Notes: generated by a model not told the origin, from the letters alone. Shown: positions 257 to 19,320, numbered from the stretch's first letter. The stretch: 53,318 bases of DNA from a virus (IMGVR_UViG_3300037602_000009:1-53318); one strand, 5' to 3'. Program-made: numbers and translations.

Positions 257-469
257 ATGGAGCACAAGATGTTTTACGCAGTTGCTATCCTCCCGACCAA
301 GGATGGTCAGGCCGTTCAGTACCTGGGGAGCTGGGGCCGCAGCAAATCTCATCGCCGGGAGCTGGCTCAGGAATATACTTGGGAGCGAGCTTGTCAGGTT
401 CGTGATGAGCTTCGCCGGCAACCCGGCCTGACCCCCGAGGGCCGTGAAAGCATTGTGGTGGTATCATGA
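257..469 (+). CDS. Hypothetical early protein (true start probably ATG 269)
   Basis: Follows the AGAAATGGAGCAC RBS motif; stop overlaps the next ATG (ATGA). Confidence 0.7.
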   Translation: MEHKMFYAVAILPTKDGQAVQYLGSWGRSKSHRRELAQEYTWERACQVRDELRRQPGLTPEGRESIVVVS

Positions 470-1059
470 CACGTGAAGAATGGCTCAAGAAGGCGGTGCG
501 CTCCATGCGCCCGCTCCTGCGCAAGGCGAACATCAAGATGCGTGCCAAGTGGCAGGTGTCCGTCTCCCTCGCCTCCAGCCGGACGGCTATTGGGCAATGC
601 TGGTATGAGGCCGCCAGCGCCTCCGGGAAAACCGCCAACATATTTGTCTGCCCCACGGTCGGGGACCCGGTTGAGGTCCTGGGCGTCCTGCTTCACGAGA
701 TGATCCACGCGGCCCTCCCCATGGGCGTTCATCACGGCCCCAAGTTCGCAAAGGCCTGTAAGCAGATCGGCCTGGAGGGGAAGCCCACTCACGCAACCCC
801 GGGACCAAAGCTCAAGGCGGAGCTTGCCCGGCTCGCCGCCTTCCTGGGCACCTATCCGCATGACGCTATGGTGGTGAGGTCCGGCGGCAAACAGGGAACC
901 AAGGGCGGCTATTGGCCGGTGTACGTCTCCCCGGCTGATGAGCGCTACCGCGTCCAGATCAGCGAGCGAGCCCTGAAGGAATACGGCCCGCCGATCTGCC
1001 CCATCACCGGCGACCAAATGACCCTCGCCACTGGCCGTGCGCCCAAGTGGCCCAACTGA
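466..1059 (+). CDS. SprT-like zinc metalloprotease
   Basis: VLLHEMIHA (HExxH) followed by HHGPKF. Confidence 0.8.
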   Translation: MTREEWLKKAVRSMRPLLRKANIKMRAKWQVSVSLASSRTAIGQCWYEAASASGKTANIFVCPTVGDPVEVLGVLLHEMIHAALPMGVHHGPKFAKACKQIGLEGKPTHATPGPKLKAELARLAAFLGTYPHDAMVVRSGGKQGTKGGYWPVYVSPADERYRVQISERALKEYGPPICPITGDQMTLATGRAPKWPN

Positions 1060-1072
1060 GAAAGAGAGCACC

Positions 1073-2281
1073 ATGATCATTTTCCAGAACAAAGGTCTCA
1101 TTGACCTCCGGGCCGTCAAGACGGTCGGGCTCAACGCAAAGCCCAAGACGGACAACCCCATCGGGGAGTTCGGCACAGGCCTCAAGCTCGCCATCGCCGT
1201 GATCCTTCGCAACAAGGGTCACGTCACGCTGTACCGGGGCAAGCAGCCCTATGTGTTCGGGGTCAAGGCCACCAAGTTCCGGGGCGAGGATGTTCAGCTC
1301 ATCACGATGAACGGCGAGGAGCTGGGCTTCACCCTGAACTACGGCAAGAATTGGAAGCCGTGGCAGGCCTTCCGGGAGCTGTACAGCAACATGCTGGATG
1401 AGCCCGAGGGCGTCTGCTCATACACCAAACTCATCGCCAACCCCAAACCCGGTTACACGACCATCGTGGTGGACGGATGCGAGTTTGATGAGCTGTACGA
1501 GAACCGGCGCAGCGTGTTCCTGGAGGGCGATCCACTGCTCAAGGTCCCGGGGCTGGAGGTCCACTTTGGCCAGTCCAAGGCCATCTATTACAACGGCATG
1601 CGCGCCATGGACCTGCCTCAGCCGTCCCTGTTCACCTACAATATCACGAGCCGGATGACCCTCACCGAGGATCGCACGTTCATGTATCCGCACATGGCCC
1701 CGTACTACACGGTGCGTGCGCTCGCCGCGTGCGACAACGGGGAGATCATCGCCAACGTCCTCACGGCGGACAAGGAGGCTTGGGAAAGCCGGTTTGAGTA
1801 CGATCTGGGCAAGGAGGCTCCGGTGTCGGGGACCTTCATGCGGGTCGCTGCCGACCTCAAGGCCCGTCGCCAGCCTATGGTCGCCGGGGCGTCCAAGCTG
1901 TTTGCTGAACGCGCCACCCAGACCTCCACCTATGGGATGGTGAGGACGCGGGACCCATCCCGCGTTGAGCTGGCTCACTATGAGCGAGCCCTGGAGCTGG
2001 TCCGCATGAAGCTCCCGAACGTTGACAACCTGCCCTGCGTCGTGGCGAATGACCCCGAGGTCAAGGAGGTCTATGCCAACCGGGAATTGATAGAGCTTGC
2101 CCCGGGCTGCGCTGAGCAGCCTGTGCTGGACCTCGCTGTGAAAATCGTCGTGGCCCTGTGTAACCGGGAAGCGGGCAAGGAGCTTACTGCCCAGGCCGTC
2201 GCCCGGATGTTCCTGCTGGGCTCATTTGAGCGCAAGCGGGAGGAGCCGCAGCCGTTCGCTGAGGCCGACATCCCATTCTGA
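1073..2281 (+). CDS. GHKL/HATPase-like (rIIA-like) ATP-binding protein
   Basis: IGEFGTGLKLA and WQAFRELYSNMLDE motifs; RBS motif AGAAAGAGAGCAC before ATG 1073; acidic ADIPF tail. Confidence 0.65.
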   Translation: MIIFQNKGLIDLRAVKTVGLNAKPKTDNPIGEFGTGLKLAIAVILRNKGHVTLYRGKQPYVFGVKATKFRGEDVQLITMNGEELGFTLNYGKNWKPWQAFRELYSNMLDEPEGVCSYTKLIANPKPGYTTIVVDGCEFDELYENRRSVFLEGDPLLKVPGLEVHFGQSKAIYYNGMRAMDLPQPSLFTYNITSRMTLTEDRTFMYPHMAPYYTVRALAACDNGEIIANVLTADKEAWESRFEYDLGKEAPVSGTFMRVAADLKARRQPMVAGASKLFAERATQTSTYGMVRTRDPSRVELAHYERALELVRMKLPNVDNLPCVVANDPEVKEVYANRELIELAPGCAEQPVLDLAVKIVVALCNREAGKELTAQAVARMFLLGSFERKREEPQPFAEADIPF

Positions 2282-2282
2282 C

Positions 2283-2311
2283 TAGACCCAGCCCGGTGCC
2301 CGGGTTAGCTT
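2283..2311 (+). promoter_or_regulatory. Putative sigma70 promoter
   Basis: TAGACC-17 bp-TAGCTT in the intergenic region upstream of 2361. Confidence 0.45.
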
Positions 2312-2360
2312 ACTCGGGCACATGGGATAGTCCCCGCGCAACTCTAACAGGAGGTTCACC

Positions 2361-2582
2361 ATGATCCGCCGCTACTTCTTTGGCTTTGTCAGCTTGTTTT
2401 CCATGCTCATCGCCACTGCCCTCATTGCCCTTCCGGTCCAGCTGACCGTTGACACTGTCCTCGCCCTCGCCACCGTCGCCGCCCTGATCACCGTCGCCGT
2501 CTCGCCGCCGGCACCTGTGCGCTCCTTCATGGAGCGGCTCCGCTCCCGCCCCGCCTATATCGGTGACGGCAGTACCATCTGA
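2361..2582 (+). CDS. Small membrane protein (2 TM)
   Basis: Strong RBS CAGGAGGT; two hydrophobic helices. Confidence 0.75.
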   Translation: MIRRYFFGFVSLFSMLIATALIALPVQLTVDTVLALATVAALITVAVSPPAPVRSFMERLRSRPAYIGDGSTI

Positions 2583-2604: not shown

Positions 2605-2633
2605 CCTCAGCCCCGCCTAGTGTGGGGCTGAGG
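2605..2633 (+). terminator. Stem-loop after the membrane gene (terminator-like, no U-tract)
   Basis: CCTCAGCCCCGC-CTAGT-GTGGGGCTGAGG. Confidence 0.45.
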
Positions 2634-2653
2634 TGTCAGAAAAGGAGCACGAG

Positions 2654-3001
2654 ATGATTGAATGTACCCAAGCCGACATAGACCGCTTCATGAAGCACGT
2701 GGACATCCTGCCGTGCGGCTGCTGGTTCTGGATCGGCGCGACCTCCAAGGGGAAAGGCAACCGCAAGCCTTATGGGACCTTCTGGGTCAACCGCAAGGTG
2801 GGCCGGGTCCGGGCTCATCGCTTCGCCTGTGAGGTGATCGGCAAGAAGGGCGAGCTGCCCAAAGGGCATGACCGGGACCACACCTGCCGCTTCAGCCTCT
2901 GCGTCAACCCGGACTGTATTGAGTACGTGACCAAGGCGGTGAACCAAGAACGCAAGCACAGCGGCTTCAGCCGCTTTCAGGAGGATCGGCCCCATGCGTG
3001 A
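2654..3001 (+). CDS. HNH endonuclease (Zn-binding, homing-type)
   Basis: GCWFWIG...YG...RAHRF...DHTCRFSLCVNPDC motifs; AAGGAG RBS. Confidence 0.85.
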   Translation: MIECTQADIDRFMKHVDILPCGCWFWIGATSKGKGNRKPYGTFWVNRKVGRVRAHRFACEVIGKKGELPKGHDRDHTCRFSLCVNPDCIEYVTKAVNQERKHSGFSRFQEDRPHA

Positions 3002-3782
3002 TGTCGTGATCGTTGGCGGGGGTTTGTTCGGCTCCATCGCAGCCGCCGCCCTCCGGGATGCCGGCATGGATGTCTGCCTGATTGATGACGGTCGCCCCCG
3101 CTCGGGCTCCCGGGCCGCCGGTTGCCTGATGAAACCGTCCTGGCTCAGTAAGATGGGCAGGGACAACGTGGACGCCTCTTTCAGGCTCCTGGACAGGCTG
3201 TACGGCCTCCGCACAATCTCGCTCAAAGCCGGGCCACTTTCCGTCAATGCGGAATGGGTCAACCCCGATCTGGTTTTGCGGTCCCCGCGCCAGATGCGGA
3301 AGGTCACAGCAACGCTCCCGGGCCGGGTCTATTTCGGCACAGGTGAGGTGCTGGAGGCCAAGAAGGTCATTGTGGCTTGCGGAGCCTGGACCAAGGCCCT
3401 CATTCCCGGTTGCGACGTGACCGGCAAGATCGGGGTCAGCATACGGCTCAACGCTGCGCCCGAGGACAACCGGATCGATCCCTGGGCACCCTACAAGCAG
3501 CTGGTGCGCTTCTCCACAGGCGACTTCCATTGGGCCGGGGACGGGACCGCCATCATTGAGAAGAATTGGACCCTGGACAGGGAGCGGGCCTCACTGGACC
3601 GCATCATTGAGTTCGCCGGGGAAGGTCAGGCCCGGGTCGGCATCCGGCCCTATGTCTCGACCTCTGACCCGGCGGCCCTGGAGGAGGTCGCCCCCGGCCT
3701 CTGGAGCCTGACTGGTGGGGGCAAGAACGGGACGGCAGCCGCAGGCTGGGCCGCTTCCCGCCTGTTGGAGGCCTTAACATGA
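2994..3782 (+). CDS. FAD-dependent oxidoreductase (DAO-like), probable flavin-dependent lyase of thymidine hypermodification
   Basis: N-terminal DVVIVGGGLFG Rossmann motif, SRAAGCL, VIVACGAW, VGIRP and GGGKNG; adjacent to modification genes. Confidence 0.8.
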   Translation: MRDVVIVGGGLFGSIAAAALRDAGMDVCLIDDGRPRSGSRAAGCLMKPSWLSKMGRDNVDASFRLLDRLYGLRTISLKAGPLSVNAEWVNPDLVLRSPRQMRKVTATLPGRVYFGTGEVLEAKKVIVACGAWTKALIPGCDVTGKIGVSIRLNAAPEDNRIDPWAPYKQLVRFSTGDFHWAGDGTAIIEKNWTLDRERASLDRIIEFAGEGQARVGIRPYVSTSDPAALEEVAPGLWSLTGGGKNGTAAAGWAASRLLEALT

Positions 3783-4009
3783 AGGTGATATACAAGTGCC
3801 GTTGTATGGACGCTGAGCGCTCCATCGACGTCACGGCCCGGGTCCCCGAGGGGGACCTACAAGAATGGATGGAAGGCGTTGTCATCAACTGCGTCGCCTA
3901 TGACCACGCCGGTCACTATCCCAACTGTCAATCCACCCACATGGACTGGCTCAAGATACCCATGATTGATGAGGAGGCCCCAATTGGCGTCGATGTCACC
4001 CGCAACTGA
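3779..4009 (+). CDS. Small Cys/His-rich hypothetical protein
   Basis: Translationally coupled to the FAD gene; CRC...C...H..H...C pattern. Confidence 0.65.
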   Translation: MKVIYKCRCMDAERSIDVTARVPEGDLQEWMEGVVINCVAYDHAGHYPNCQSTHMDWLKIPMIDEEAPIGVDVTRN

Positions 4010-4793
4010 GACCAACGACCCTGTTGCCTGGGGTCGCCGTCTCATCGAAACCAACGACCATGACCCGCTGTATGCCGCCTTGGGCCAGTGGGATGTGAAA
4101 GGCTCCCGGCTCCGCCGGTTCATGCTCGCCTATTGGTGCTGTTACAGCGTCGGGGCGAGCTGGTGGTTGAGCCAACATTCCGGGACCCGGTTCTGGGAGC
4201 AGCTCACCATTGCCGCCCATAATGCCAAGCCGTCGCCGCTCGGGGGCCGTTGGCCCAGAGCGCACGAGCGTCGTCACTGGCGCGGCGATAAGTGCGTGAA
4301 CAGCGTGCTGTGGCTCGCAGATCGGTTCAAGCACCCCGAGGAGGCGGTGCTGTCCCTTGAGGCCGCCCGCTCCCTGGGCGACGTCAACCGGCTGATGGAC
4401 TGGCCTCAGTTTGGTCCGTGGATCGCCTTCAAGGCGGCTGACATGCTGGAGCGCGTCCTTGCCGTCCCGGTCGCCTTCCCCGAGGAAATTGTGACGCTCT
4501 ACAAGGACCCCAAGGAGGGGGCTGACATGGCCGCCCAAGTGATCGGCGGTCTATATGGTCCGCAGGAAGTGGTCCAACTCATGCTGGAAAGCTATTCTGA
4601 CATCATCGCCCCCGGCTTCAAGGGCTCGGGCCGGGTCTGTAACATCCAGGAAGTGGAGACGGTTCTGTGTAAGTGGAAGTCAGCCCGCAAGGGTCATTAC
4701 TTCATCGGCAAGGACACAGCCGACCACAGGGCTGAGCTGCTCGCTTGGGATGCTCAAGACCTTCTCGCTGTGTACCCAATCACCCCCGCTTGA
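3993..4793 (+). CDS. Amino acid:DNA transferase (aGPT-Pplase2 / ADDT family)
   Basis: LIETNDHDPLY, AYWCCYS, WPRAHERRHWRG, FGPWIAFKAADMLERV and EVETVLCKWKS motifs; cluster context. Confidence 0.8.
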   Translation: MSPATETNDPVAWGRRLIETNDHDPLYAALGQWDVKGSRLRRFMLAYWCCYSVGASWWLSQHSGTRFWEQLTIAAHNAKPSPLGGRWPRAHERRHWRGDKCVNSVLWLADRFKHPEEAVLSLEAARSLGDVNRLMDWPQFGPWIAFKAADMLERVLAVPVAFPEEIVTLYKDPKEGADMAAQVIGGLYGPQEVVQLMLESYSDIIAPGFKGSGRVCNIQEVETVLCKWKSARKGHYFIGKDTADHRAELLAWDAQDLLAVYPITPA

Positions 4794-4818
4794 CATCTAT
4801 CCCCGCCGGGGATAAGGT
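4790..4818 (+). promoter_or_regulatory. Putative sigma70 promoter containing palindromic operator TATCCCCGCCGGGGATA
   Basis: TTGACA-17 bp-TAAGGT; the palindrome spans the spacer. Confidence 0.7.
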
Positions 4819-4845
4819 GAACTGATCAGAAATGGAGCACGATCA

Positions 4846-5475
4846 ATGATCATAAACATCAGAGGCACCAACGGGTCTGGTAAGACCCACTTGGCTCGCC
4901 AGCTCATCGGGGCGGATGCGCACCCGGTTGATCTGGTCTGGTATGACGCACCCACCAAGAAGGTCCCCGACCGCAAGCTGTCCGTGGAGGGCTGGGGTCA
5001 GCCTGACGAGTTCTTTGCGGTCGGGTCCTACAAGCAGGGCTGCGGCGGCATGGACACCATCCCGAGCTTTGAGCTTCAGCAATCCGCCGTTCGGGTCGCT
5101 GCTGACTGGAAGCATGAAGGAGGCCGCCCCCTTGGCGGTCACGGCCCACGCCATGTCGTGTGCGAGGGCGTCCTGGCTTCCACCGTCTATGGAAGCTGGG
5201 GTGAGTTCTTTCGGGAGATGGAAGCGGCTCACCACAGCGTCATCGTGGCCTATCTGGACACCCCCCTGGAGCTGTGCCTTGAGCGCATCACCGCCCGTCA
5301 GATCGCCGCCAAGGGCGAGGCTCGGGAGATCAAGACCGATCTGGTGGCGAACAAGATCAAGGCGATTGAGGCGACCCGGGCGAGGTTCAAGGCCGCCGGC
5401 ATTCTCACCGTAACCCTTCGCCATGGCTCCGCCCTGAGCGACCTTCATGAGGCACTTGAATATGGCGCGCATTGA
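4846..5475 (+). CDS. P-loop nucleotide/DNA kinase of the 5-hmdU modification system
   Basis: INIRGTNGSGKT Walker A, GCGGMDTI, VVCEGVL and LDTPLELCLERI. Confidence 0.8.
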   Translation: MIINIRGTNGSGKTHLARQLIGADAHPVDLVWYDAPTKKVPDRKLSVEGWGQPDEFFAVGSYKQGCGGMDTIPSFELQQSAVRVAADWKHEGGRPLGGHGPRHVVCEGVLASTVYGSWGEFFREMEAAHHSVIVAYLDTPLELCLERITARQIAAKGEAREIKTDLVANKIKAIEATRARFKAAGILTVTLRHGSALSDLHEALEYGAH

Positions 5476-6454
5476 CGCTTCTCCGCTCTGGGCCTGGGCC
5501 AACGAGCGCCACGCCATCTACATCCGCAAGGAGCTTCGGGCCGGACGGTCGCCCGAGGAGCTTCATATTGCGGCGGACTGCGAGGACCTCCAGGACTGTG
5601 ACCCGGAGGGCTTCGCCATCAACGAGGTCGGGCCGTACACTGATGACCCGATCCTCCAGCAGTACCGCTTCTGTAACGTGTTCCGGGAGCTGGACCGGGT
5701 GACGGTCTGGGTTGAGGAGAACATCCGCAAGCCATTCAAGGATCACCCCGACCTGTGGTTGATGCTTGCCATCGCCCGTTACATCAACTGGCCCGACACC
5801 CTCAAGTTCTTGATTGAGAGCGGCTATTGCTGGCCCAATCAAGACTTCACACCCGAGGACCTGGGCCGTGCTCTGGACTATCGGAAGGCCCAGGGGGGCA
5901 AGCTCTACACCGGGGCGTACATGATCCGGGCTGAGAGCAATCCCAACGCTGAATGGTACAGCTGGACCAAGCAGCAGTACATTGCCCGCATCGTGATCGG
6001 TCGCCTGTGGGAGGATCGGGAGCAGTGGAGGGCGATGCTGGAGGACCAGCCCGAGGGCGGCCTGGAGTTGGAAGCCGTTTGGCAGCTGTTCCAGTCCCCG
6101 CGCTACATCGGCTGGGGGCCGTTCATGAGCTATCAGGTGGTGGTGGACCTCCGCTGGACCCATTACCTGCGCAACGCCCCGGACATCAACACGTGGGCGG
6201 CCCTCGGGCCGGGCTCCCGGCGCGGCCTCAACCGGCTCGCCGGGCGTGATCTGGACTTCAACCTCACTCAGGCTCAGGGCCTGGAGGAAATGCGCCAGAT
6301 TTGGGAGGAGCAGGACCAGTACCGCGCCCCCTGGGTCCCCCGCATCGACCTCAGCGACATCCAGAACTGTCTCTGTGAGACAGACAAGTATCTCCGGGTC
6401 AAGCTCGGGGAAGGCAAGCCCCGGGCTCAGTATGTCCCGGGCCGTGGTTATTGA
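5462..6454 (+). CDS. aGPT-Pplase1 / 5-hmdU DNA kinase helical-domain protein
   Basis: ERHAIYIRKE, YTDDPILQQYRFCNVFRELDRVT, GPFMSYQVVVDL, GPGSRRGLNRL and IQNCLCETDKY motifs. Confidence 0.85.
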   Translation: MARIDASPLWAWANERHAIYIRKELRAGRSPEELHIAADCEDLQDCDPEGFAINEVGPYTDDPILQQYRFCNVFRELDRVTVWVEENIRKPFKDHPDLWLMLAIARYINWPDTLKFLIESGYCWPNQDFTPEDLGRALDYRKAQGGKLYTGAYMIRAESNPNAEWYSWTKQQYIARIVIGRLWEDREQWRAMLEDQPEGGLELEAVWQLFQSPRYIGWGPFMSYQVVVDLRWTHYLRNAPDINTWAALGPGSRRGLNRLAGRDLDFNLTQAQGLEEMRQIWEEQDQYRAPWVPRIDLSDIQNCLCETDKYLRVKLGEGKPRAQYVPGRGY

Positions 6455-6469
6455 GAAAAGGAGAACGAC

Positions 6470-7099
6470 ATGGCCAGCACACGATTGACCAACAGCATAC
6501 GCGACAGCTTGCTCAAGAAGCTCCTTGAACGCGCCTTCAAGGCCCGTTGCGATGAGTTTCTGAAGCGGGCCGCCGCTTTCGCCGTCGCCGTCCACGCTGA
6601 TGTATTCGGCAAGGACCTGGAGAAGATGAACGCCCTGCCCAGGGGCTGGTTGCCGCAGGACGATGACATCATGGTCCGGTTTGGCGGGGACAACACCCGA
6701 CTGAGCTTCAAGGGCTCCCTGGGCTCTGGAGGCATCCCTGACGCCTTCCGGCGCTGCGGTTCCACCGGAGGTGACAGCGTGTACCTTCGCCTCACCGATA
6801 GCACTAAGGGCACCACGGCCAAGGTCTATAACGCCCGGGAGCCGCTCGCCTCTGAGTATGAGGGGCTCATCAATGAGCGCAAGGACCTATGTGATGAGAT
6901 TGAGCGCGCAGCTCGCACGGCCAAAGCCGCGATGGAAAGCTGCTCCACAATCGAAAAGCTCATCAAGGTCTGGCCCGAGGTGGAGGAGTTCGCCAAGGAG
7001 TTCTTGGTGGACGGTGAGCGCAAGGCTTTGCTCCCCGATGTCCCCCGGGCTCAGCTCAACAACCTACTTAATCTGCCGCCCGAGGAGAAAGCCGCATGA
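6470..7099 (+). CDS. Nmad5-like nucleotide-modification-associated protein
   Basis: RLTNSIRD N-terminus and TIEKLIKVWPE C-terminal motif; cluster context. Confidence 0.7.
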   Translation: MASTRLTNSIRDSLLKKLLERAFKARCDEFLKRAAAFAVAVHADVFGKDLEKMNALPRGWLPQDDDIMVRFGGDNTRLSFKGSLGSGGIPDAFRRCGSTGGDSVYLRLTDSTKGTTAKVYNAREPLASEYEGLINERKDLCDEIERAARTAKAAMESCSTIEKLIKVWPEVEEFAKEFLVDGERKALLPDVPRAQLNNLLNLPPEEKAA

Positions 7100-8196
7100 T
7101 CACGATTGAAGCACGCAACGTCAACGACGCCCTCTGGGCCGGGGGCTCTATGCTCCGCCAGATGGGCGTCCAGCGCGACAGCCGCAACGGGCCGGTGTTG
7201 GTTGCCCCGGCTCCAGTGTCAACGGTCTACATGAACCCGGTGGAGCGCGTCATGCTCCATCCCGGTCGGGACGCCAACCCATTCTTCCATCTGGTGGAAG
7301 CCCTGTGGATGCTCGCCGGTCGCAACGACCTCGCCACGCTGACTGAGTTCGTCAAGAACATGGCCAACTTTAGCGATGACGGCGGCAAGACACAGCCGGG
7401 GGCCTATGGCTTCCGCTGGCGCAAGCAATTCGACTATCGCCGGGGCCGGGAGCTGGATCAGCTCGCCTGGGCCATCAACCGGCTCAAGGCCGATCCCGAT
7501 GACCGCCGGGTGGTGATTCAGATGTGGGACCCGGCGGCGGACGCTTATGCCGCTGATCATGGGGGCAAGGACGTTCCCTGTAACCTCATCGCGCTGCCGT
7601 CGATTGGCACTGACGGGCGTTTGAACCTCACGGTGTACAACCGCTCAAATGATATGGTCTGGGGTGCCTACGGCGCAAACGCGGTGCATTTCTCCGTGCT
7701 CCAGGAGTATCTGGCCGCCATGATCGGGGTCCCCGTTGGGCAGTACTGGCAGGTTGCGAACAACTTCCATGCCTACCTGACCACGCTCGGGAAGGCCGGG
7801 GAGGAGCGGCCGTGGGGCCAGTCTCAGCTGGTCGGGACCGCTGGGCGCTTCCTCCCCGACCCCTATGTGTCCGGCAAGATCAAGCCCATGCCGATGTTCA
7901 CTGAAGGCCTCTCTCAGGAGGAGGTCCTTGACGACATTGAGATGTTCCTCAAGAACCCGGCCCGGGTCGGCATCCGGTCTGAGTTCCTGCGCAAGGTCGC
8001 CTGCCCGATGGTGATGGCTCACCGCGCCTTCAAGCGCTGGGGCGGCCTGGACGGCATCTCATCGGCTCGGGAGGTCCTGGACCAGATGCCCAAGGACAAC
8101 GACTGGAAGGCCGGGGCTGAGCTCTGGTTGAGCAACCGCGAGGCCAAGCTGCGCCGCGCACAGGACGATGGAGTGAGCCATGCTGCTGAAGATTAG
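7096..8196 (+). CDS. Thymidylate synthase-fold dUMP hydroxymethylase
   Basis: SRNG, RDANPFFHLVEALWMLAGRND, GAYGFRWR, DRRVVIQMWD, DVPCN (catalytic Cys) and NRSNDMVWGAYGANAVHFS. Confidence 0.88.
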   Translation: MITIEARNVNDALWAGGSMLRQMGVQRDSRNGPVLVAPAPVSTVYMNPVERVMLHPGRDANPFFHLVEALWMLAGRNDLATLTEFVKNMANFSDDGGKTQPGAYGFRWRKQFDYRRGRELDQLAWAINRLKADPDDRRVVIQMWDPAADAYAADHGGKDVPCNLIALPSIGTDGRLNLTVYNRSNDMVWGAYGANAVHFSVLQEYLAAMIGVPVGQYWQVANNFHAYLTTLGKAGEERPWGQSQLVGTAGRFLPDPYVSGKIKPMPMFTEGLSQEEVLDDIEMFLKNPARVGIRSEFLRKVACPMVMAHRAFKRWGGLDGISSAREVLDQMPKDNDWKAGAELWLSNREAKLRRAQDDGVSHAAED

Positions 8197-8353
8197 GATG
8201 GAGCTGCTGCCTGAAGATCGGCAGCCCAAGAACAGCTATCGCTACGGCTTCAAGAACGGCGATGCCGGGATTGAGTCCGTGTACATCAAGCGCTCTGTCT
8301 TCAAGGGCGCACCACCCAAGAACATCACGGTGAGTGTCGATGAAGCTGACTGA
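8180..8353 (+). CDS. Small hypothetical protein (57 aa, not in ORF track)
   Basis: ATG after GGAG; MLLKIRMELLPEDRQPKNSYRYGFKNGDAGIESVYIKRSVFKGAPPKNITVSVDEAD fills the gap and overlaps both neighbours. Confidence 0.7.
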   Translation: MLLKIRMELLPEDRQPKNSYRYGFKNGDAGIESVYIKRSVFKGAPPKNITVSVDEAD

Positions 8354-8861
8354 CCGCGTCATTGCCGTCCGGGAGGCCTCGCTTGTGGAGCGCTGTCACG
8401 TCCTCCCTCATGTCGGCAGCTACAACATTGGTTTTCACACCTACGGTGTGGCGACCCTCTGCCATCTCCTCTGGCCTGATCAGCCCCAGCTGGTCATCGC
8501 GGCGCTGTTTCACGACACGCCCGAGCGCTGGACCGGCGACGTGCCCAGCCAGGTCATCAAGGCCAACCCGGCGGTTGCCGGCACCCTTGCTCAGCTGGAC
8601 GGGGACATCACCGGAATGCTCAGCCTGCCGTGCGAACATCACCTGAATGACGTGGACTTCGCACGCTTCAAGGCTTGTGACCGCCTTGAGTTCTGGCTAT
8701 GGTGTCGGGACCAGCTCGCATTCGGCAACCAGATGATCCTCAACGCGATGGAAAGCATTGAGGACACGCTGGAAAGCGACAACAACACGCCTCCCGAGGT
8801 CCTGACGCTCTACATGGACCTCAAGGATGAGGGCTGGAAGCGACACAAGGAGTCAATCTGA
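8340..8861 (+). CDS. HD-domain phosphohydrolase (5'-deoxynucleotidase YfbR-like)
   Basis: VERCH, YNIGFHTYG, AALFHDTPERWTGDVPS and KACDRLE. Confidence 0.85.
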   Translation: MKLTDRVIAVREASLVERCHVLPHVGSYNIGFHTYGVATLCHLLWPDQPQLVIAALFHDTPERWTGDVPSQVIKANPAVAGTLAQLDGDITGMLSLPCEHHLNDVDFARFKACDRLEFWLWCRDQLAFGNQMILNAMESIEDTLESDNNTPPEVLTLYMDLKDEGWKRHKESI

Positions 8862-9244
8862 TGGATCAACACGTTGAACAGGTCGGGGGCGACCATTATC
8901 AGGCCCCATACCAGCACTGGGACTGGTGCGCTGAAACCGGGCTCGGGTATCTGGAGGGCAACGCCACAAAGTACCTTGCCCGGTTCCGCAAGAAGCAGGG
9001 CCGCCAGGACCTGGAGAAGGCCAGCAGCTACGTCCAGAAGCTCCTTGCCGTCCCCGGACTGGTGCCGGCCCGGGAGCGTCTGGGCTATAGCCCGGAACGT
9101 CTCGCTAAGTTCACCCGGTCGGCAGGACTGACGGGGCTTCCCGAGGCCCGGTTGATCGTGCTGATCGACAGCTGGCGCACCGACAACGACCTGCGTGAGG
9201 TCCTGTTGGGTATTCAGGAGCTGATCAGTGCGACACGAGGTTGA
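8861..9244 (+). CDS. DUF3310 / SaV-like protein (T7 gp1.7 nucleotide kinase-like)
   Basis: QVGGDHY...GYLEGNATKYLARFRKKQGRQDLEKASSY. Confidence 0.8.
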   Translation: MDQHVEQVGGDHYQAPYQHWDWCAETGLGYLEGNATKYLARFRKKQGRQDLEKASSYVQKLLAVPGLVPARERLGYSPERLAKFTRSAGLTGLPEARLIVLIDSWRTDNDLREVLLGIQELISATRG

Positions 9245-9458
9245 CACCATCATCGCTCAGATGGAGGGCGAGCGCGGCGTGACCCGCGCTCAGCTTCTCG
9301 CCCCCACCCGATCCTCGGCAAAGGTCGCTCAGGCCCGTCAGGAGGCCATGCGCCGGGTCAAGGCCCGGTTCCCGGAGGCCTCATGGTCTGAGATTGGTCG
9401 CCTGTTTGGGCGTGATCGCACGACTGTCCGCCACGCCTGCCTCAAGAAAGTTGACTGA
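9228..9458 (+). CDS. DnaA C-terminal (domain IV)-like helix-turn-helix protein
   Basis: GVTRAQLLAPTRS..VAQARQEAM...SWSEIGRLFGRDRTTVRHA. Confidence 0.75.
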   Translation: MRHEVDTIIAQMEGERGVTRAQLLAPTRSSAKVAQARQEAMRRVKARFPEASWSEIGRLFGRDRTTVRHACLKKVD

Positions 9459-11506
9459 TGTACGCACAGCTGCCCCTGTTTGAGCCTGAAAGCTCCTGGA
9501 CCCCGCCCCGGTTGTCGGACCTCCCGACCTCCTGGGGCTCGGGCCGGGTCGCCATCGACACTGAGAACCGGGATGAGCTGCTGACCAAACTTGGCCCAGG
9601 GGTCCGCCGGGGGGCCTACATTGCCGGCATCTCATTCGCCATTGAGGACGGCCCGAGCTTTTACCTGCCGATTAGGCACGGCGGGGGCGGCAACCTCCCG
9701 CCGGAGCAGGTCCTGGCCTATGTCCGGGACTGCGCCAAGCGCTTTGATGGCATCCTGGTCGGGGCCAACCTCGGGTATGACCTGGACTTCCTTGAGGAGG
9801 TCGGCATCACCTTCCCGAATGTGAAGTGGTTCCGCGACGTTCAGGTGGCTGACCCGCTCATCAACGAGCTTCACATGAGCTATTCGCTGGAGAGCATCAG
9901 CCAACGGTGGGGCATTCCAGGGAAGGATGAGACCCTGCTTCAAGAAGCCCTCGCCACCTACGGTTACAAGGGGGCCAAGTCCAAGGGCGGCATATGGGCG
10001 CTGCCCTCCAAATTCGTCGGGGCCTATGCTGAGCAGGACGCTCGCTTGCCCCTTTCGATCCTCCGCCGCCAAGAGCGTGAGATTGACGAGCAGGACCTGT
10101 GGAACGTCTACAACCTTGAGAGCCGCGTGCTGCCGGTTCTGGTCAAGATGCGCCGCCGGGGCGTTGCCGTCGATCAGGACCGGCTTGACAAGGTCGATGC
10201 CTGGGCCAGAGCTGAGCAGCAGAAGGCCGTGGACGCAACCAACGACGCCTTGCCGCCCGGCCTGCGCCTGACGTTCCACGATGTGAGCAACACCAACGTC
10301 CTCGCCCGGGTTCTCACTGGCCTCGGGATAGAGCTGCCCAAGACCCGCACCGGCAAGGACAGCGTGACCGCCGCCGTGTTGGACAAGATTGACCACCCGG
10401 TCGGTGACCATCTCCGCCGGGCTCGCAAGATGGTCACGCTGCGCTCCACATTCGTGGATAGCGTCCGTGAGCACCTCATCAACGGTCGCGCTCACTGTAC
10501 ATTCAACCAGCTCCGCCGTCAGAAGGATGATGAGAGCGGCGAGACTGAAGGCGCTGCCTTTGGGCGGCTGAGCTCAGCCAACTTCAATTTCCAGAACCAA
10601 CCAGCCCGCGACCCCGAGATTGGGCCTCTGTGGCGCTCCATCTATGTCCCGGACCACGACAAGCCCTGGGCCGCCCTTGACTATTCCCAGCAGGAGCCCA
10701 GGCAGGCCGTCAACTCAGCGATTGAGACCGGCCCGGACTTGATCGGGCAGGCCGCCTATGAGTCAGCGTGTGAGGCCGCCCGGCGCTATCGTGATGACCC
10801 CACGATGGACTTCCACGACATGATGACCCGCATGATCAACGGGGATGACTTCCTGGAGCGGGAGGGCGAGAAGGCCTTCAAGCAGAAGCGCAAATATGCC
10901 AAGAACATCTTTCTGGGCCTGTCCTACGGCATGGGCGGGGCGAAGCTGTGTCACGACCTCGGGCTGCCCTCTGTCTGGCGTCTGAGCTGGAAGGACGGCC
11001 GCAGCCGCCGGTTCCGGGACTACGACACAGCTGAGGAGGCTCACGCAAAGGCGGCTGACGGGCGCAAGGCAGGCTTTGACGTCCGGGTCTGGGAAGCCGC
11101 CGGGCCGGATGGACAGGCCCTCATCGACACATTCGACCGTCAGGTGCCATTCGTCCGCAAGATGGCGAACCATATGCAGGACGTGGCGAGCCGTCAGGGA
11201 TACATCCTGACCCTGGCCGGTCGCCGGTGCCGCTTCCCGCAGAAGGAAAGCGGTGAATATGATTGGCTTCACAAGGCCTTCAACCGCCGCATCCAGGGCG
11301 GATCGGCTGACCAGACCAAGATGGCGCTGGTTGAGATGGACGCCCAGGGGCTGTATGTCCAGCTTCAGGTCCACGATGAAATCGACGGTTCCATGACGCC
11401 CGAGGAGGCGAAGTTTGGGGCTGAGATCATGGAGAACGTGGTCAAGACCCACGTGCCATTTAAGGTCGATGTTGAGCTGGGCCCGAGCTGGGGTGAGTCA
11501 ATGTAA
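9458..11506 (+). CDS. polA: DNA polymerase family A with 3'-5' exonuclease
   Basis: AIDTE and NLGYD exonuclease motifs; GRLSS, LDYSQQEPR, RKYAKNIFLGLSYGMG, IQGGSAD and QVHDEI. Confidence 0.95.
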   Translation: MYAQLPLFEPESSWTPPRLSDLPTSWGSGRVAIDTENRDELLTKLGPGVRRGAYIAGISFAIEDGPSFYLPIRHGGGGNLPPEQVLAYVRDCAKRFDGILVGANLGYDLDFLEEVGITFPNVKWFRDVQVADPLINELHMSYSLESISQRWGIPGKDETLLQEALATYGYKGAKSKGGIWALPSKFVGAYAEQDARLPLSILRRQEREIDEQDLWNVYNLESRVLPVLVKMRRRGVAVDQDRLDKVDAWARAEQQKAVDATNDALPPGLRLTFHDVSNTNVLARVLTGLGIELPKTRTGKDSVTAAVLDKIDHPVGDHLRRARKMVTLRSTFVDSVREHLINGRAHCTFNQLRRQKDDESGETEGAAFGRLSSANFNFQNQPARDPEIGPLWRSIYVPDHDKPWAALDYSQQEPRQAVNSAIETGPDLIGQAAYESACEAARRYRDDPTMDFHDMMTRMINGDDFLEREGEKAFKQKRKYAKNIFLGLSYGMGGAKLCHDLGLPSVWRLSWKDGRSRRFRDYDTAEEAHAKAADGRKAGFDVRVWEAAGPDGQALIDTFDRQVPFVRKMANHMQDVASRQGYILTLAGRRCRFPQKESGEYDWLHKAFNRRIQGGSADQTKMALVEMDAQGLYVQLQVHDEIDGSMTPEEAKFGAEIMENVVKTHVPFKVDVELGPSWGESM

Positions 11507-11511
11507 CGAGC

Positions 11512-11540
11512 TTTCCCCGGGGCTGTCCCGGGGATAAGGT
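11512..11540 (+). promoter_or_regulatory. Putative sigma70 promoter with CGGGGATAA motif
   Basis: TTTCCC-17 bp-TAAGGT; imperfect inverted repeat TTTCCCCG...CGGGGATAA. Confidence 0.55.
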
Positions 11541-11562
11541 GGAGCCTCAGAAAGGGAGCACC

Positions 11563-11985
11563 ATGGATCACCGCCAATCCGCCAAGCGCATGTCGTTCAG
11601 ATCGCCGGACCCGTCCACCAAGGTCGGTTGCGTCATCGTTGATCACGCCCGGGGCTCCACCATCGGGGTCGGCTGGAATGACTTCCCCGCCGGGGCTCCT
11701 GATTGGTGGTGGAACGTCCGTGAGCGCAAGTATGCGGCGGTGGTTCATGCCGAGGTCGCGGCCCTCCTGAGCGCTGGAGATGAGGCCAAGGGGGCGTTGA
11801 TGTACGTCACTCACCATCCGTGCCGTGACTGCGCAAAGCACATCGCTTTTGCTGGGATCAAGACCGTGGTATGCCCCGAGGGGCCGTGGCGCGATGATCC
11901 TGAAATCTTGGCGTCAGTTACTGACGCTGCTAATCTGTTGAGGGCCTGCGGGGTCCAAGTCATCTATCAGGAGGATGTGGAATGA
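11563..11985 (+). CDS. dCMP deaminase
   Basis: SPDPSTKVGCVIV, GWND, VHAEVAAL and PCRDC zinc motifs. Confidence 0.92.
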   Translation: MDHRQSAKRMSFRSPDPSTKVGCVIVDHARGSTIGVGWNDFPAGAPDWWWNVRERKYAAVVHAEVAALLSAGDEAKGALMYVTHHPCRDCAKHIAFAGIKTVVCPEGPWRDDPEILASVTDAANLLRACGVQVIYQEDVE

Positions 11986-15364: not shown

Positions 15365-15388
15365 GTGATGCTAGAAAAGGAGCATGAG

Positions 15389-16156
15389 ATGACCAAACCA
15401 CCCTACACCCTCAATGACGCAAACCTGTTGGCCGATGAGCTCAACATGGTGATGATGAGCCTGCCGACCTTCCGCATTCAAAGCGTCGGGACGCGCATCA
15501 GCATTGAGCACGCCCCCGGCCACTACTTTGACCACGGCCTGGACTGCGTTGCCGAGTTCCACCAGGCATTTGACTGCTACGTGGCCAAGGAGCCCGGCCT
15601 GCCGGCGATGACGACCGAAAGCGCCAAGATGCTCGACAAGTATCAGTTGGGGGCTGCGCAATGGGGCGAATATCTCAAGGAAATGGCCGCGATTGCCAAG
15701 GCGAACGGCGATGAGGGCGGAGCCCTGCTGCTGATCCGCCTTCAGCTGTGTCAGGAGGAGCTTGCCGAGCTGGCTGAGGCGTTGATCCATCGTGACATCG
15801 TCGGCTGCTTGGACGCCCTCACCGATATGACCTATGTGGCCGATGGGACCTATCACACCCTTGGCCTCGGGCACTACAAGGCCGCCGCCACGGCGGAGGT
15901 TCACGCCTCCAACATGAGCAAGCTCGGGGAGGACGGCAAGCCGATCATCTCAGACGCGGGCCGGGTGGTGAAGGGTCCGAACTACCGCAAGCCCGACCTC
16001 GCCGCTGTTCTGGGCATCCGCCCCGAGGTCCCGGGTGAAGACACGGTGGTGGCTCACGGCGAGCCTATCCGTACCAATCACCGGGAGCCGAGCGAGTTCG
16101 GGGACGGCGCGACCGTGATCAACAAGCTCTATGAGGAACGCAAGACCAATGGCTGA
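15389..16156 (+). CDS. NTP pyrophosphohydrolase (PRA-PH/MazG superfamily)
   Basis: VAEFHQAF, RLQLCQEELAEL, LDALTDMTYV, EVHASNMSKL and GRVVKGPNYRKPDL. Confidence 0.85.
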   Translation: MTKPPYTLNDANLLADELNMVMMSLPTFRIQSVGTRISIEHAPGHYFDHGLDCVAEFHQAFDCYVAKEPGLPAMTTESAKMLDKYQLGAAQWGEYLKEMAAIAKANGDEGGALLLIRLQLCQEELAELAEALIHRDIVGCLDALTDMTYVADGTYHTLGLGHYKAAATAEVHASNMSKLGEDGKPIISDAGRVVKGPNYRKPDLAAVLGIRPEVPGEDTVVAHGEPIRTNHREPSEFGDGATVINKLYEERKTNG

Positions 16157-18111: not shown

Positions 18112-18251
18112 GCAAATCCCTTGGTTGGCTCGCCCTCGGGGCGGCAGTGGTTCTGGTCCTCTGGATTATGGCCGCAGATCATTCACAGTCGATGGAGCGC
18201 TGCCAAGCGGTGGCGAGCTTCGACACTTGTCATAAGGCGCTGAACCCATGA
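18108..18251 (+). CDS. Small membrane protein (47 aa, not in ORF track)
   Basis: MSKSLGWLALGAAVVLVLWIMAADHSQSMERCQAVASFDTCHKALNP; ATGA overlaps on both sides. Confidence 0.65.
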   Translation: MSKSLGWLALGAAVVLVLWIMAADHSQSMERCQAVASFDTCHKALNP

Positions 18252-19123
18252 TTTTCAAAGAGGAACTGGTTGTTCAATTGTTCTCAGATGCCCGAGAACG
18301 GTACAACATAAAACTGAAGCGGGATCGGGGAGAAATCAAGCCCTGGACAGATCACCCGTTCATGAGCGTCTATCATATGTGCAATGTCTTCCGGGACGAT
18401 GACGCAGTGAGTCAATACATTATGCGGGGCCTCTTGCCCCGAAATCAGGGCCAGGAGTGGTGGTTGGTTGTACTCGCCCGGCTGATCAATAATGAGGAAA
18501 GCCTGAAGCGGTTAGACCTAAATCGCATTGATCTATCAGAAATATTACTCAACACTTCAGCCTACAAGCTCAATACGCCCCTGGGCCTCAACAACCGACA
18601 AGGTATCCTGGAGTTGGTCGAAAAGGCCAGGAAGCGAAATTGGCCAGTTGAGACGTCTTTGTGTGGAGCTTGGCAATCTCTTTGCTCTATAGGTCTTTCA
18701 GCGTTCATAGCGTACCAGGCTGCGCATGACCTGAAGGGCTCTGACCTGCCGGCAGTACCAGAGGATGCCGACACCTGGACCTTCATGGGCATCGGCGCTG
18801 AGAGGGGCGCTTTGCGCCTCCGGGGCCACAACCTGGTGGAGTGGTATCGGGCCCAAGGCTTCAAGAAGCAAGAGGACGGGACCCGGGCGGACGGGCTTCC
18901 AGGCGGAGCCAGAATCAAAAAAGCTCTGAGAGAGTTGGAGGGTTCTGAAGATTGGGCCCTGAAAGCAGCTATTGAGGTATTGAAACTTTCCAAGGAGCCA
19001 GATTTGTGGCCATCAAATTGGCCCGCCTGGCATCTTGGGGAAGCGGAGCACATGTTGTGCGAGTTTGATAAACTGGAACGCTGGCGTCAGATCGGACCAG
19101 CGGGAGCAAGGAGATTTAGATGA
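18248..19123 (+). CDS. Second, divergent aGPT-Pplase1 / HMUDK-helical-domain protein
   Basis: ERYNIKLKR..G..KPWTDHP...CNVFRDDD, AFIAYQAAHDL, GIGAERG and EHMLCEFDK match the paralog at 5462; AT-rich. Confidence 0.8.
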   Translation: MIFKEELVVQLFSDARERYNIKLKRDRGEIKPWTDHPFMSVYHMCNVFRDDDAVSQYIMRGLLPRNQGQEWWLVVLARLINNEESLKRLDLNRIDLSEILLNTSAYKLNTPLGLNNRQGILELVEKARKRNWPVETSLCGAWQSLCSIGLSAFIAYQAAHDLKGSDLPAVPEDADTWTFMGIGAERGALRLRGHNLVEWYRAQGFKKQEDGTRADGLPGGARIKKALRELEGSEDWALKAAIEVLKLSKEPDLWPSNWPAWHLGEAEHMLCEFDKLERWRQIGPAGARRFR

Positions 19124-19320
19124 CCGTCAAGCATGAATTGAGGAGCTGTCCTGTATGCGGGACGCTCACCACCGTCAAGGTGCGCCGCCCCAATCACGTC
19201 CTTCACGCCGTGCTGAGCGTGATCACGTTTGGTTTCTGGCTCCCGATCTGGGCGCTGGCCGGACTTGAGAGCCTGTTCCACCGTGGACGGGTGAAGTGCC
19301 CCCGGGGGTGCTCACGATGA
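19120..19320 (+). CDS. Small Zn-ribbon membrane protein
   Basis: CPVC...NHVLHAVLSVITFGFWLPIW...CPRGC. Confidence 0.7.
   Translation: MTVKHELRSCPVCGTLTTVKVRRPNHVLHAVLSVITFGFWLPIWALAGLESLFHRGRVKCPRGCSR

Follow-up and report, generated by a model that had tools for sequence, protein, structure and literature searches.

A PaMx11-type thymidine hypermodification cluster in a Pam3-like phage with 5-aminomethyl-deoxyuridine as its predicted end product

Virion DNA of the phages M6 and ViI contains A, G, C, T and one fifth nucleoside, which replaces about 30-40% of T, and by the account of Lee 2018 there is no residual 5-hydroxymethyl-2'-deoxyuridine (5-hmdU). The M6 base, 5-(2-aminoethyl)-2'-deoxyuridine (5-NedU), and the ViI base, 5-(2-aminoethoxy)methyl-2'-deoxyuridine (5-NeOmdU), both end in a free primary amine (Lee 2021). 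In the pathway of phage PaMx11, the flavin enzyme gp47 alone converts DNA that carries N-alpha-glycinylthymidine (N-alpha-GlyT, nominally 315 u) to a nucleoside of 257 u assigned as 5-aminomethyl-2'-deoxyuridine (5-NmdU; Lee 2021, NAR), and the acetyltransferase gp48 then yields a nucleoside of 299 u (Lee 2021). Here we describe a thymidine hypermodification cluster at positions 2994-9244 of the phage genome IMGVR_UViG_3300037602_000009 (the window, analysed over its full length). The cluster has the gene content of a PaMx11-type pathway, its catalytic and pocket residues are conserved, and recognizable partner enzymes for its flavin enzyme are absent. From sequence, we favour, with a little more than even confidence, a pathway that ends at 5-NmdU, present alongside ordinary T rather than 5-hmdU.

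Genome and cluster

The window is a 53,318-bp IMG/VR virus record with direct terminal repeats of 127 nt, rated 100% complete, as the initial annotation had supposed in calling the genome complete. Its G+C content is about 62%, and almost every gene is on the + strand. The virion genes match Pam3/E217-type myovirus families in Pfam (Pam3_gp18, Phage_cement and Pam3 gp32-34-like proteins), and on these matches the phage is a Pam3-like myovirus. Genes of the cluster abut or overlap, with no gap within the block wider than 52 nt, and all open reading frames (ORFs) are intact.

DNA of isolate phages covers at most 9% of the block (megablast). The closest isolate by protein is Rhizobium phage RHph_TM26 (hereafter TM26; oxidase 71% and transferase 63.5% identical). 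The transferases of RHph_I65 and RHph_I72 are 61.6% identical to that of the window and the transferase of Pseudanabaena phage Pam3 59.6%, and the proteins shared with PaMx11 are 30-48% identical. Every gene previously named in the block, together with the downstream PolA and dCMP deaminase, was recovered by Pfam in its place on the + strand; the list adds the small ORF at 8180-8353:

2994-3782 (+), N-alpha-glycinylthymidine oxidase/lyase (NGTO) homologue having an FAD (flavin adenine dinucleotide) Rossmann fold (DAO, E = 2.1e-13)
3779-4009 (+), Cys/His-rich 76-aa ORFan, without a Pfam, PHROG or NCBIfam match
3966-4793 (+), amino acid:DNA transferase (ADDT, aGPT-Pplase2), likely start ATG at 3993 (PF18724, E = 1.6e-18)
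4846-5475 (+), P-loop 5-hmdU DNA kinase (5-HMUDK; PF18748, E = 2.9e-8)
5447-6454 (+), aGPT-Pplase1/HMUDK_hel of the long Pam3 type (PF18723, E = 4.3e-47)
6470-7099 (+), Nmad5 accessory protein (PF18757, E = 7.3e-25)
7096-8196 (+), thymidylate-synthase-family (TS-like) enzyme, inferred dUMP hydroxymethylase (PF00303, E = 2.2e-22)
8180-8353 (+), small conserved ORF of 57 aa without a family, 55-75% identical in the related genomes G001, G002, TM26 and RHph_I65
8334-8861 (+), HD-domain YfbR-like putative 5'-deoxynucleotidase (PF12917, E = 9.4e-9)
8861-9244 (+), DUF3310 protein (PF11753, E = 1.7e-7)
9458-11506 (+), family A DNA polymerase PolA (PF00476), 70-83% identical in relatives
11539-11985 (+), dCMP deaminase (PF00383, E = 7.2e-19; phrog_174 dCMP deaminase, E = 3.8e-41)

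The flavin enzyme and the transferase

Only two PDB sequences match the oxidase at E = 1e-3 or better, both of them PaMx11 gp47 (NGTO; 8z2o, E = 2.1e-63), to which it is 42-44% identical. DAO, Pyr_redox_2 and FAD_binding match its N-terminal FAD Rossmann fold at residues 3-50, with GxGxxG present in the alignment, and at the Rossmann motif the MnmC FAD domain of NCBIfam matches weakly (E = 9.4e-4, 18.3 bits against a cut-off of 174). Wen 2024 (NAR) names the NGTO residues W51, F52, Y180, Q182, K202, R210, R242, Y244 and K268, of which R242 is the proposed ligand of the glycine carboxylate. Aligned to gp47, the oxidase retains seven of the nine (W51, Y180, Q182, R210, R242, Y244 and K268), including the base cage W51/Y180/Q182/K268, the carboxylate ligand R242 and the phosphate contact Y244. 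By these matches, 2994-3782 is an NGTO homologue, and it is the only tailoring enzyme recognized in the window.

The transferase matches PF18724 at 67.8 bits (cut-off 26.2) and, in the PDB, 8z2m (PaMx11 PUGT, gp46; E = 4e-53) and 25qc (a second amino acid:DNA transferase; E = 4e-47). It retains 11 of the 12 PUGT residues named by Wen 2024, among them C247, the nucleophile, and E243 and T244, which bind the metal. Transferases of this family are reported to take varied donors; in the YuA enzyme K248 and Y257 hold the glycine carboxylate, and a diamine transferase becomes a glycine transferase when these two residues are introduced (Li 2026). Mapped on M6 gp51, the enzyme of the window keeps all six glycine-pocket residues (D24, E96, K159, K248, Y257 and D262). 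Across 30 transferases that adjoin an oxidase homologue, the residue at the Y257 position never varies and the one at the K248 position is at least 90% conserved. Because the pocket is retained, K248 and Y257 included, glycine is the predicted donor.

Kinase and precursor enzymes

The kinase matches PF18748 at 33.9 bits (cut-off 27) and is 32% identical to PaMx11 gp49 (E = 2.7e-16). The aGPT-Pplase1 protein beside it is 62-71% identical in all five relatives compared below, and M6 gp55, of the same family, is reported to be dispensable in vitro for N-alpha-GlyT formation. The PF00303 match of the TS-like protein is limited to profile positions 57-215 of 266; the protein also matches phrog_5131 (E = 9.8e-118) and is 48% identical to PaMx11 gp51, and from cluster orthology we infer that it is a hydroxymethylase rather than a methylase. 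The HD protein matches an NCBIfam 5'-deoxynucleotidase at E = 1.5e-8, under the family cut-off, is 37% identical to PaMx11 gp52 and would probably clear competing dTMP/dUMP. The DUF3310 protein is 30% identical to PaMx11 gp53 and matches PHROG families labelled nucleotide kinase. A further hydrolase is encoded downstream of the cluster:

15365-16156 (+), MazG-like nucleotide pyrophosphohydrolase (PF01503, E = 2.5e-6; phrog_671, E = 2.2e-30)

It is a candidate dTTP/dUTP-clearing enzyme by analogy with the dTTPase/dUTPase named by Li 2026.

Searches for a hidden tailoring enzyme

For the Pfam scan, 165 ORFs were taken from the 424 start-to-stop ORFs of at least 40 aa, mainly those of at least 60 aa on the + strand and at least 90 aa on the - strand; none matched a GNAT, pyridoxal-phosphate (PLP) or radical S-adenosylmethionine (SAM) family. 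Six-frame searches of the whole window with PF00583, PF04055 and PF00291 gave no match, and the PF00583 search recovered PaMx11 gp48 as a positive control at E = 2.6e-16. With tblastn against the window, the best match of gp48 had E = 0.8, and the Pam3 PLP, Pam3 radical-SAM and RHph_I65 radical-SAM proteins had none.

We also built custom profiles from enzymes that adjoin oxidase homologues (9 GNATs, 10 amidoligase-like proteins and 11 low-molecular-weight (LMW) phosphatases), added single methyltransferase and PanD queries, and ran them with filters off on all 725 six-frame stop-to-stop ORFs of at least 40 aa. The best GNAT match (E = 0.053) lay on an ORF of the non-coding strand. Amidoligase-like proteins, LMW phosphatases, SAM methyltransferases and PanD were rejected as partners, with nothing better than E = 0.44 among the 725 ORFs. 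PHROG and NCBIfam scans of the window revealed no further enzyme.

A cryptic acetyltransferase is thus rejected at profile level by the Pfam scan of the 165 ORFs, six-frame PF00583, the custom GNAT profile and tblastn with gp48. At the sensitivity of these searches, the view of the initial annotation that the genome has no GNAT, PLP or radical-SAM gene holds, and its picture of a PaMx11-type thymidine cluster cut short after the flavin step agrees with the orthology, the retained residues and the lack of a detected tailoring partner.

A swappable slot within the lineage

The 76 window ORFs were compared with the five closest full genomes: G001 (96% complete), G002 (98% complete), TM26 (MN988465.1), Pam3 and RHph_I65. 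One ORF of the 76, the oxidase, is present in G001, G002 and TM26 and absent from Pam3 and RHph_I65. The oxidases of the three genomes that have it are 69-71% identical to that of the window and their transferases 63-72%, and none of the three has a PF00583 match. The HD hydrolase and Nmad5 are variably present among relatives. Upstream of the transferase, the tailoring slot holds:

Window: HNH endonuclease, oxidase, unrelated 76-aa ORFan
TM26: oxidase, polynucleotide-kinase (PNK)-like protein
RHph_I65: 469-aa radical-SAM protein, PNK-like P-loop protein, 75-aa ORF
Pam3: PLP enzyme, HNH endonuclease, radical-SAM enzyme

The slot is a swappable cassette within this phage lineage. No PLP enzyme was seen in the 12-kb stretch of RHph_I65 examined. 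The slot of the window is flanked by an endonuclease gene, copies of which are 69-79% identical in all five relatives:

2633-3001 (+), HNH endonuclease of homing type, next to the variable tailoring slot (PHROG endonuclease families, E = 3.9e-19; weak Pfam HNH_3 match)

The PNK-like P-loop protein, of 162-163 aa, separates the tailoring gene from the transferase in TM26 (L002, 1228-1719) and in RHph_I65 (L004, 1834-2322), that is, with either tailoring type; the window has none.

Among 32 oxidase homologues, a maximum-likelihood tree groups those of the window, TM26 and the loci L005 and L006 in one clade (support 100/100), with weak support (88/83) for the PaMx11/Epa5 acetyltransferase type as its sister; the label 'no partner' requires at least three changes on this tree. 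TM26, G001 and G002 also lack PF00583, the clade is fully supported and only the oxidase co-varies with type; we therefore read the oxidase-only state, common to at least four genomes at about 70% protein identity, as stable and not a recent loss.

Predicted pathway and end product

In the proposed pathway, the dCMP deaminase would yield dUMP, which the TS-like enzyme would convert to 5-hmdUMP, while the HD and MazG-like hydrolases would deplete competing nucleotides and the phage PolA would accept 5-hmdUTP and put 5-hmdU into DNA. The P-loop kinase and its helical aGPT-Pplase1 partner would then phosphorylate the 5-hydroxymethyl group in DNA to give 5-phosphomethyl-2'-deoxyuridine (5-PmdU), and the transferase would let the alpha-amine of glycine displace the phosphate, forming N-alpha-GlyT. 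Oxidation of the N-C-alpha bond by the flavin enzyme would release glyoxylate and leave 5-NmdU. The mature modification would be the free cationic aminomethyl base, which would occupy a fraction of T positions and might shield the DNA from host nucleases.

Because the window has no gp48 equivalent, the 257-u base should remain, and unacetylated 5-NmdU is the most economical predicted product. The initial annotation had proposed it together with 5-hmdU. The first half of that proposal stands as a prediction; the second sits poorly with M6 and ViI, and because those phages hold T and one fifth nucleoside, we expect T and 5-NmdU, which by this analogy are more likely in the virion DNA than 5-hmdU and 5-NmdU.

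Whether the base is new, as had been suggested, depends on the sense of the word: it would be new as a natural end product and is already known as an in vitro product of PaMx11 gp47. The full-text literature searched, most subscription papers being outside it, lists neither 5-NmdU as the mature base of a phage nor a cluster with the oxidase alone; such a contig may already be shown in Figure 2 of Lee 2021 or in its supplementary material. In that literature the spelling '5-NmdU' occurred in Lee 2021 and Wen 2024 only, and two other spellings of the aminomethyl base occurred in a paper on phage-related pyrimidine nucleotides (PMC11550810). A genome note on Rhodococcus phage Tonitrus describes a five-gene TET-type system with an unnamed product.

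Partners of the oxidase in other phages

An alignment-based scan of IMG/VR gave 38 loci with the oxidase, and 37 after L042, unconfirmed by tblastn, was dropped. Near-duplicates among the 37 are L011/L012, L021/L022, L023/L025, L033/L034 and L040/L041. We listed 208 neighbouring ORFs and scanned 149 with Pfam, leaving out the ORFs of seven other acetyltransferase-bearing loci and of four near-duplicate loci and two peripheral ORFs. By partner, the loci are:

gp48-like GNAT: 8 of 37 (L008, which is PaMx11 itself, L010, L013, L017, L023, L025, L026, L038)
weak GNAT match (E = 2.9e-4): 1 of 37 (L029)
amidoligase-like ORF and/or LMW phosphatase: 16 of 37
PanD-like decarboxylase: 1 of 37 (L007)
radical-SAM enzyme: 1 of 37 (L015)
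SAM methyltransferase directly upstream of the oxidase: 1 of 37 (L028)
TET/JBP oxygenase: 1 of 37 (L036)
no recognizable partner: 5 of 37 (L005, L006, L037, L027, L032), of which the L037 record is 45% complete and L032 ends at a contig edge
undecidable: 3 of 37 (L031, L035, L039)

The group of 16 comprises 12 scanned loci that encode an LMW phosphotyrosine-phosphatase/ArsC-family protein (L009, L011, L014, L016, L018, L019, L020, L021, L024, L030, L033 and L040) and four counted as near-duplicates. Most LMW-phosphatase loci also have an ORF of 300-440 aa, with a weak Amidoligase_2 match in four loci, and the two genes together are probably a route that acylates 5-NmdU. Lee 2021 gives the association of amidoligases with these clusters in general terms.

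The lyase is a hub, its neighbours in phage contigs falling into at least six different partner sets, and 5-NmdU is therefore probably a branch point towards several undescribed bases. The combinatorial diversity of such clusters, including flavin oxidoreductases, amidoligases and TET/JBP enzymes, has already been described generally (Lee 2021).

Two pairings stand apart. The SAM methyltransferase of L028 (6423-6992), with the oxidase just downstream, forms an MnmC-like pair that would predict 5-methylaminomethyl-dU. In L007, a 73-kb viral contig, a PanD-type aspartate decarboxylase (7838-8203; E = 1.5e-37) directly follows the oxidase homologue.

Accessory proteins

The 76-aa ORFan at 3779-4009 belongs to a single cluster (97% identical, 76 aa) among 5.8 billion proteins, and no homologue was found in 38 viral loci and 4 phage loci. 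In the position just upstream of the transferase, L005 and RHph_I65 have a different ORF of 75-76 aa, homologous between the two, and L006 has none. With one near-identical cluster as its only match, and with the slot of the relatives empty or filled by a non-homologous ORF, the ORFan was set aside as a pathway component.

Nmad5 has the same position in M6 (gp56), SN1 and Pam3 as in the window and is absent from G001, G002, TM26 and RHph_I65. Structure models (AlphaFold2) were made for two proteins, Nmad5 and the product of 18248-19123. The Nmad5 model (30 sequences, pLDDT 82.7) combines a long antiparallel helical hairpin and a small beta domain. Foldseek found no match to it at E = 1e-3 or better, VIA-align in its wide mode returned only generic helical hairpins (Z at most 5.3), the ESM Atlas offered no informative neighbour and a PDB sequence search no match. 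One paper ties nmad5 mutations to escape from Tmn defence. Nmad5 was rejected as the missing tailoring enzyme, given its presence in M6/SN1 and Pam3, its absence from the three other genomes with the oxidase alone and the lack of an enzyme-like match to its fold. Other enzymes account for the M6-type base. Neither Nmad5 nor the ORFan resembles a substitute for the acetyltransferase.

Overlooked by the initial annotation was a second gene of the HMUDK_hel/aGPT-Pplase1 family:

18248-19123 (+), second, divergent aGPT-Pplase1 paralogue of the short PaMx11-gp50 type (PF18723, E = 7.2e-22)

It scores 78.5 bits against PF18723 (cut-off 25) and retains the invariant R, D, N, Y, G and C-E-x-x-K columns of a 29-sequence alignment. 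The gene lies amid small family-less ORFs in a stretch of lower G+C (about 17.5-20.4 kb; 0.565-0.584 against about 0.62). No second copy was found in the five relatives, identity to isolate phages is 25-29% at best, and a pattern scan of IMG/VR found no close relative. A PDB search by sequence gave nothing relevant and Foldseek nothing at E = 1e-3 or better. In the VIA-align list for its model, PUGT is followed by a queuine salvage enzyme and helix-hairpin-helix DNA glycosylases. A small ORF close by (19120-19320) has a zinc-ribbon-like pattern and a membrane segment.

Other genes of the window

Upstream of the cluster, a block at 466-2582 (+) encodes a SprT-like protein, a 414-aa protein (phrog_8203) and a 73-aa hydrophobic ORF; no counterpart was found in the five close relatives. 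The 414-aa protein (1037-2281) is matched by homologues from 74 other phage records, YuA gp29 (23.1-24.0 kb of the YuA record) among them, and none is annotated with an enzymatic function save for one 'HATPase' label; we judged it unrelated to the pathway. The ORF at 2-232 encodes the C-terminal portion of a protein, about 320 aa long, that runs across the 127-nt terminal-repeat junction (52.5 kb to 232; phrog_7790, E = 2e-21). A 328-aa ORF with a DUF3489 domain, near this protein in size, lies slightly upstream of the cluster in L005. The portal protein (22695-24536, +) combines Phage_portal_3 (residues 39-385) with a C-terminal Acb1 anti-CBASS phosphodiesterase domain (residues 462-606, E = 2.6e-34); across relatives its aligned length varies from 423 to 624 of 613 residues.

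Weighing the end product

Several points weigh against an end at 5-NmdU. For this phage and its clade every chemical step and the end product are predictions from genes, and PaMx11 virion DNA itself was, by the account of Lee 2021, never analysed. The glycine pocket is also retained in Pam3 and RHph_I65; it therefore indicates the donor and nothing about later steps or the final product. In the oxidase, F52L and K202I remove two DNA contacts of gp47, two gp47 loops are deleted throughout the clade, and the stem of the clade is long (1.31 changes per column). Profile methods would miss an acyl- or alkyl-transferase with an unfamiliar fold, and many window ORFs are family-less, the ORFan within the cluster included; a host enzyme could also modify the amine. 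An activity is yet to be assigned to Nmad5 and to either aGPT-Pplase1 protein, and the model of 18248-19123 (pLDDT 87) is closest to PUGT 8z2m, a base-flipping fold (VIA-align Z 9.6, root-mean-square deviation 4.6 A over 206 residues). That Z is moderate for a helical protein, yet each of the 23 highest rows is a base-flipping enzyme with this fold, and profile comparison pairs the conserved Cys of 18248-19123 with the one that is catalytic in the transferase (hhalign E = 4.3e-4, probability 34%).

5-NmdU could accordingly be only an intermediate, its amine derivatized by a host enzyme or by an unrecognized phage protein, whether the second aGPT-Pplase1, Nmad5, the 76-aa ORFan or another family-less ORF. 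Across the 37 metagenomic phage loci the oxidase usually has a partner, the window alone among the six genomes carries a third gene of the aGPT-Pplase superfamily, with PUGT as its best fold match and an aligned Cys, and Nmad5 and aGPT-Pplase1 have no assigned function in the literature consulted. None of these candidates, however, tracks the oxidase: only the window has the second paralogue and the ORFan, and Nmad5, present in M6/Pam3-type clusters, is missing from the three other oxidase-only genomes and resembles no enzyme fold. Oxidases without a recognizable partner also occur in L005, L006, L037 and L027/L032. We regard this as a real though unlikely alternative. The initial annotation had likewise allowed for a different end product made by unknown proteins, for which we found no evidence: the 76-aa protein is an ORFan, Nmad5 belongs to M6 and Pam3 types as well, and only the oxidase co-varies. 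That proteins without assigned activity, 18248-19123 being the first candidate, add a further undescribed group to 5-NmdU or 5-PmdU, leaving one or more undescribed bases in the virion, seems to us quite improbable.

The flavin enzyme of the clade might instead have drifted to another substrate or reaction, or be inefficient, so that the DNA would hold mainly N-alpha-GlyT, another amino-acid adduct or an oxidized derivative. The long stem, the change of two of the nine named residues, the two loop deletions, the identity to gp47 of just 42-44% and the varied donors that this transferase family accepts (Li 2026) are what such drift would leave; the base cage, phosphate contact and carboxylate ligand are nevertheless all retained, as is the whole glycine pocket of the transferase, and NGTO alone is matched in the PDB at E = 1e-3 or better, and we consider drift rather improbable. 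A decaying remnant, in which the acetyltransferase was lost, not all genes function and the DNA is unmodified or carries 5-hmdU only, would fit a gene set shorter than that of PaMx11 and the variable HD and Nmad5 genes, but all ORFs are intact and tightly packed, the catalytic residues are conserved and the oxidase-only arrangement is kept by four genomes whose proteins are by now about 70% identical. We hold it to be highly improbable.

Implications and comparison with known systems

If the pathway does end at 5-NmdU, 5-aminomethyluracil would be a natural DNA base and not a mere reaction intermediate, and a flavin lyase would suffice as the terminal tailoring step. A cultured member of the oxidase-only clade exists in TM26, which makes the claim directly testable. 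With its oxidase, TM26 forms with RHph_I65 (radical-SAM) and Pam3 (PLP and radical-SAM) a natural near-isogenic series that would link cassette to base and to restriction evasion. Because the general modularity of these clusters has already been described (Lee 2021), the advance is incremental; the end state is predictable but unreported.

Compared with the PaMx11 genes gp46-gp53, which specify the pathway to 5-acetylaminomethyl-dU (5-AcNmdU; Lee 2021, Wen 2024), the window has homologues of gp46, gp47, gp49, gp50, gp51, gp52 and gp53, with PolA and dCMP deaminase downstream as in PaMx11. PaMx11 has the gp48 acetyltransferase, for which no counterpart was found in the window genome. The order also differs, the oxidase preceding the transferase in the window and following it in PaMx11, and the window adds Nmad5 and the ORFan. 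The virions differ in type, PaMx11 being a siphovirus of the Mesyanzhinovviridae and the phage of the window a Pam3-like myovirus.

M6 and Pam3, of the 5-NedU type, share the core of transferase, kinase, aGPT-Pplase1, Nmad5, TS-like and HD proteins with the window, and Pam3 shares virion genes as well. Their tailoring slot holds PLP and radical-SAM enzymes, whereas that of the window holds a flavin enzyme, with neither of those found. The FAD domain of tRNA MnmC, which converts cmnm5U to nm5U, has the same proposed chemistry, oxidative cleavage of a glycine adduct on a C5-methyl-uracil (Lee 2021). MnmC acts on tRNA and its SAM domain then methylates the product, whereas the oxidase of the window has no methyltransferase domain and is predicted to act on DNA.

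TM26, G001 and G002 differ from the window in lacking Nmad5, the HD hydrolase and the second aGPT-Pplase1, and in the TM26 annotation the oxidase is only an 'FAD dependent oxidoreductase protein' among mostly hypothetical or generic neighbours. All three are nonetheless like the window in belonging to the same lineage and in having the oxidase as their sole tailoring state.

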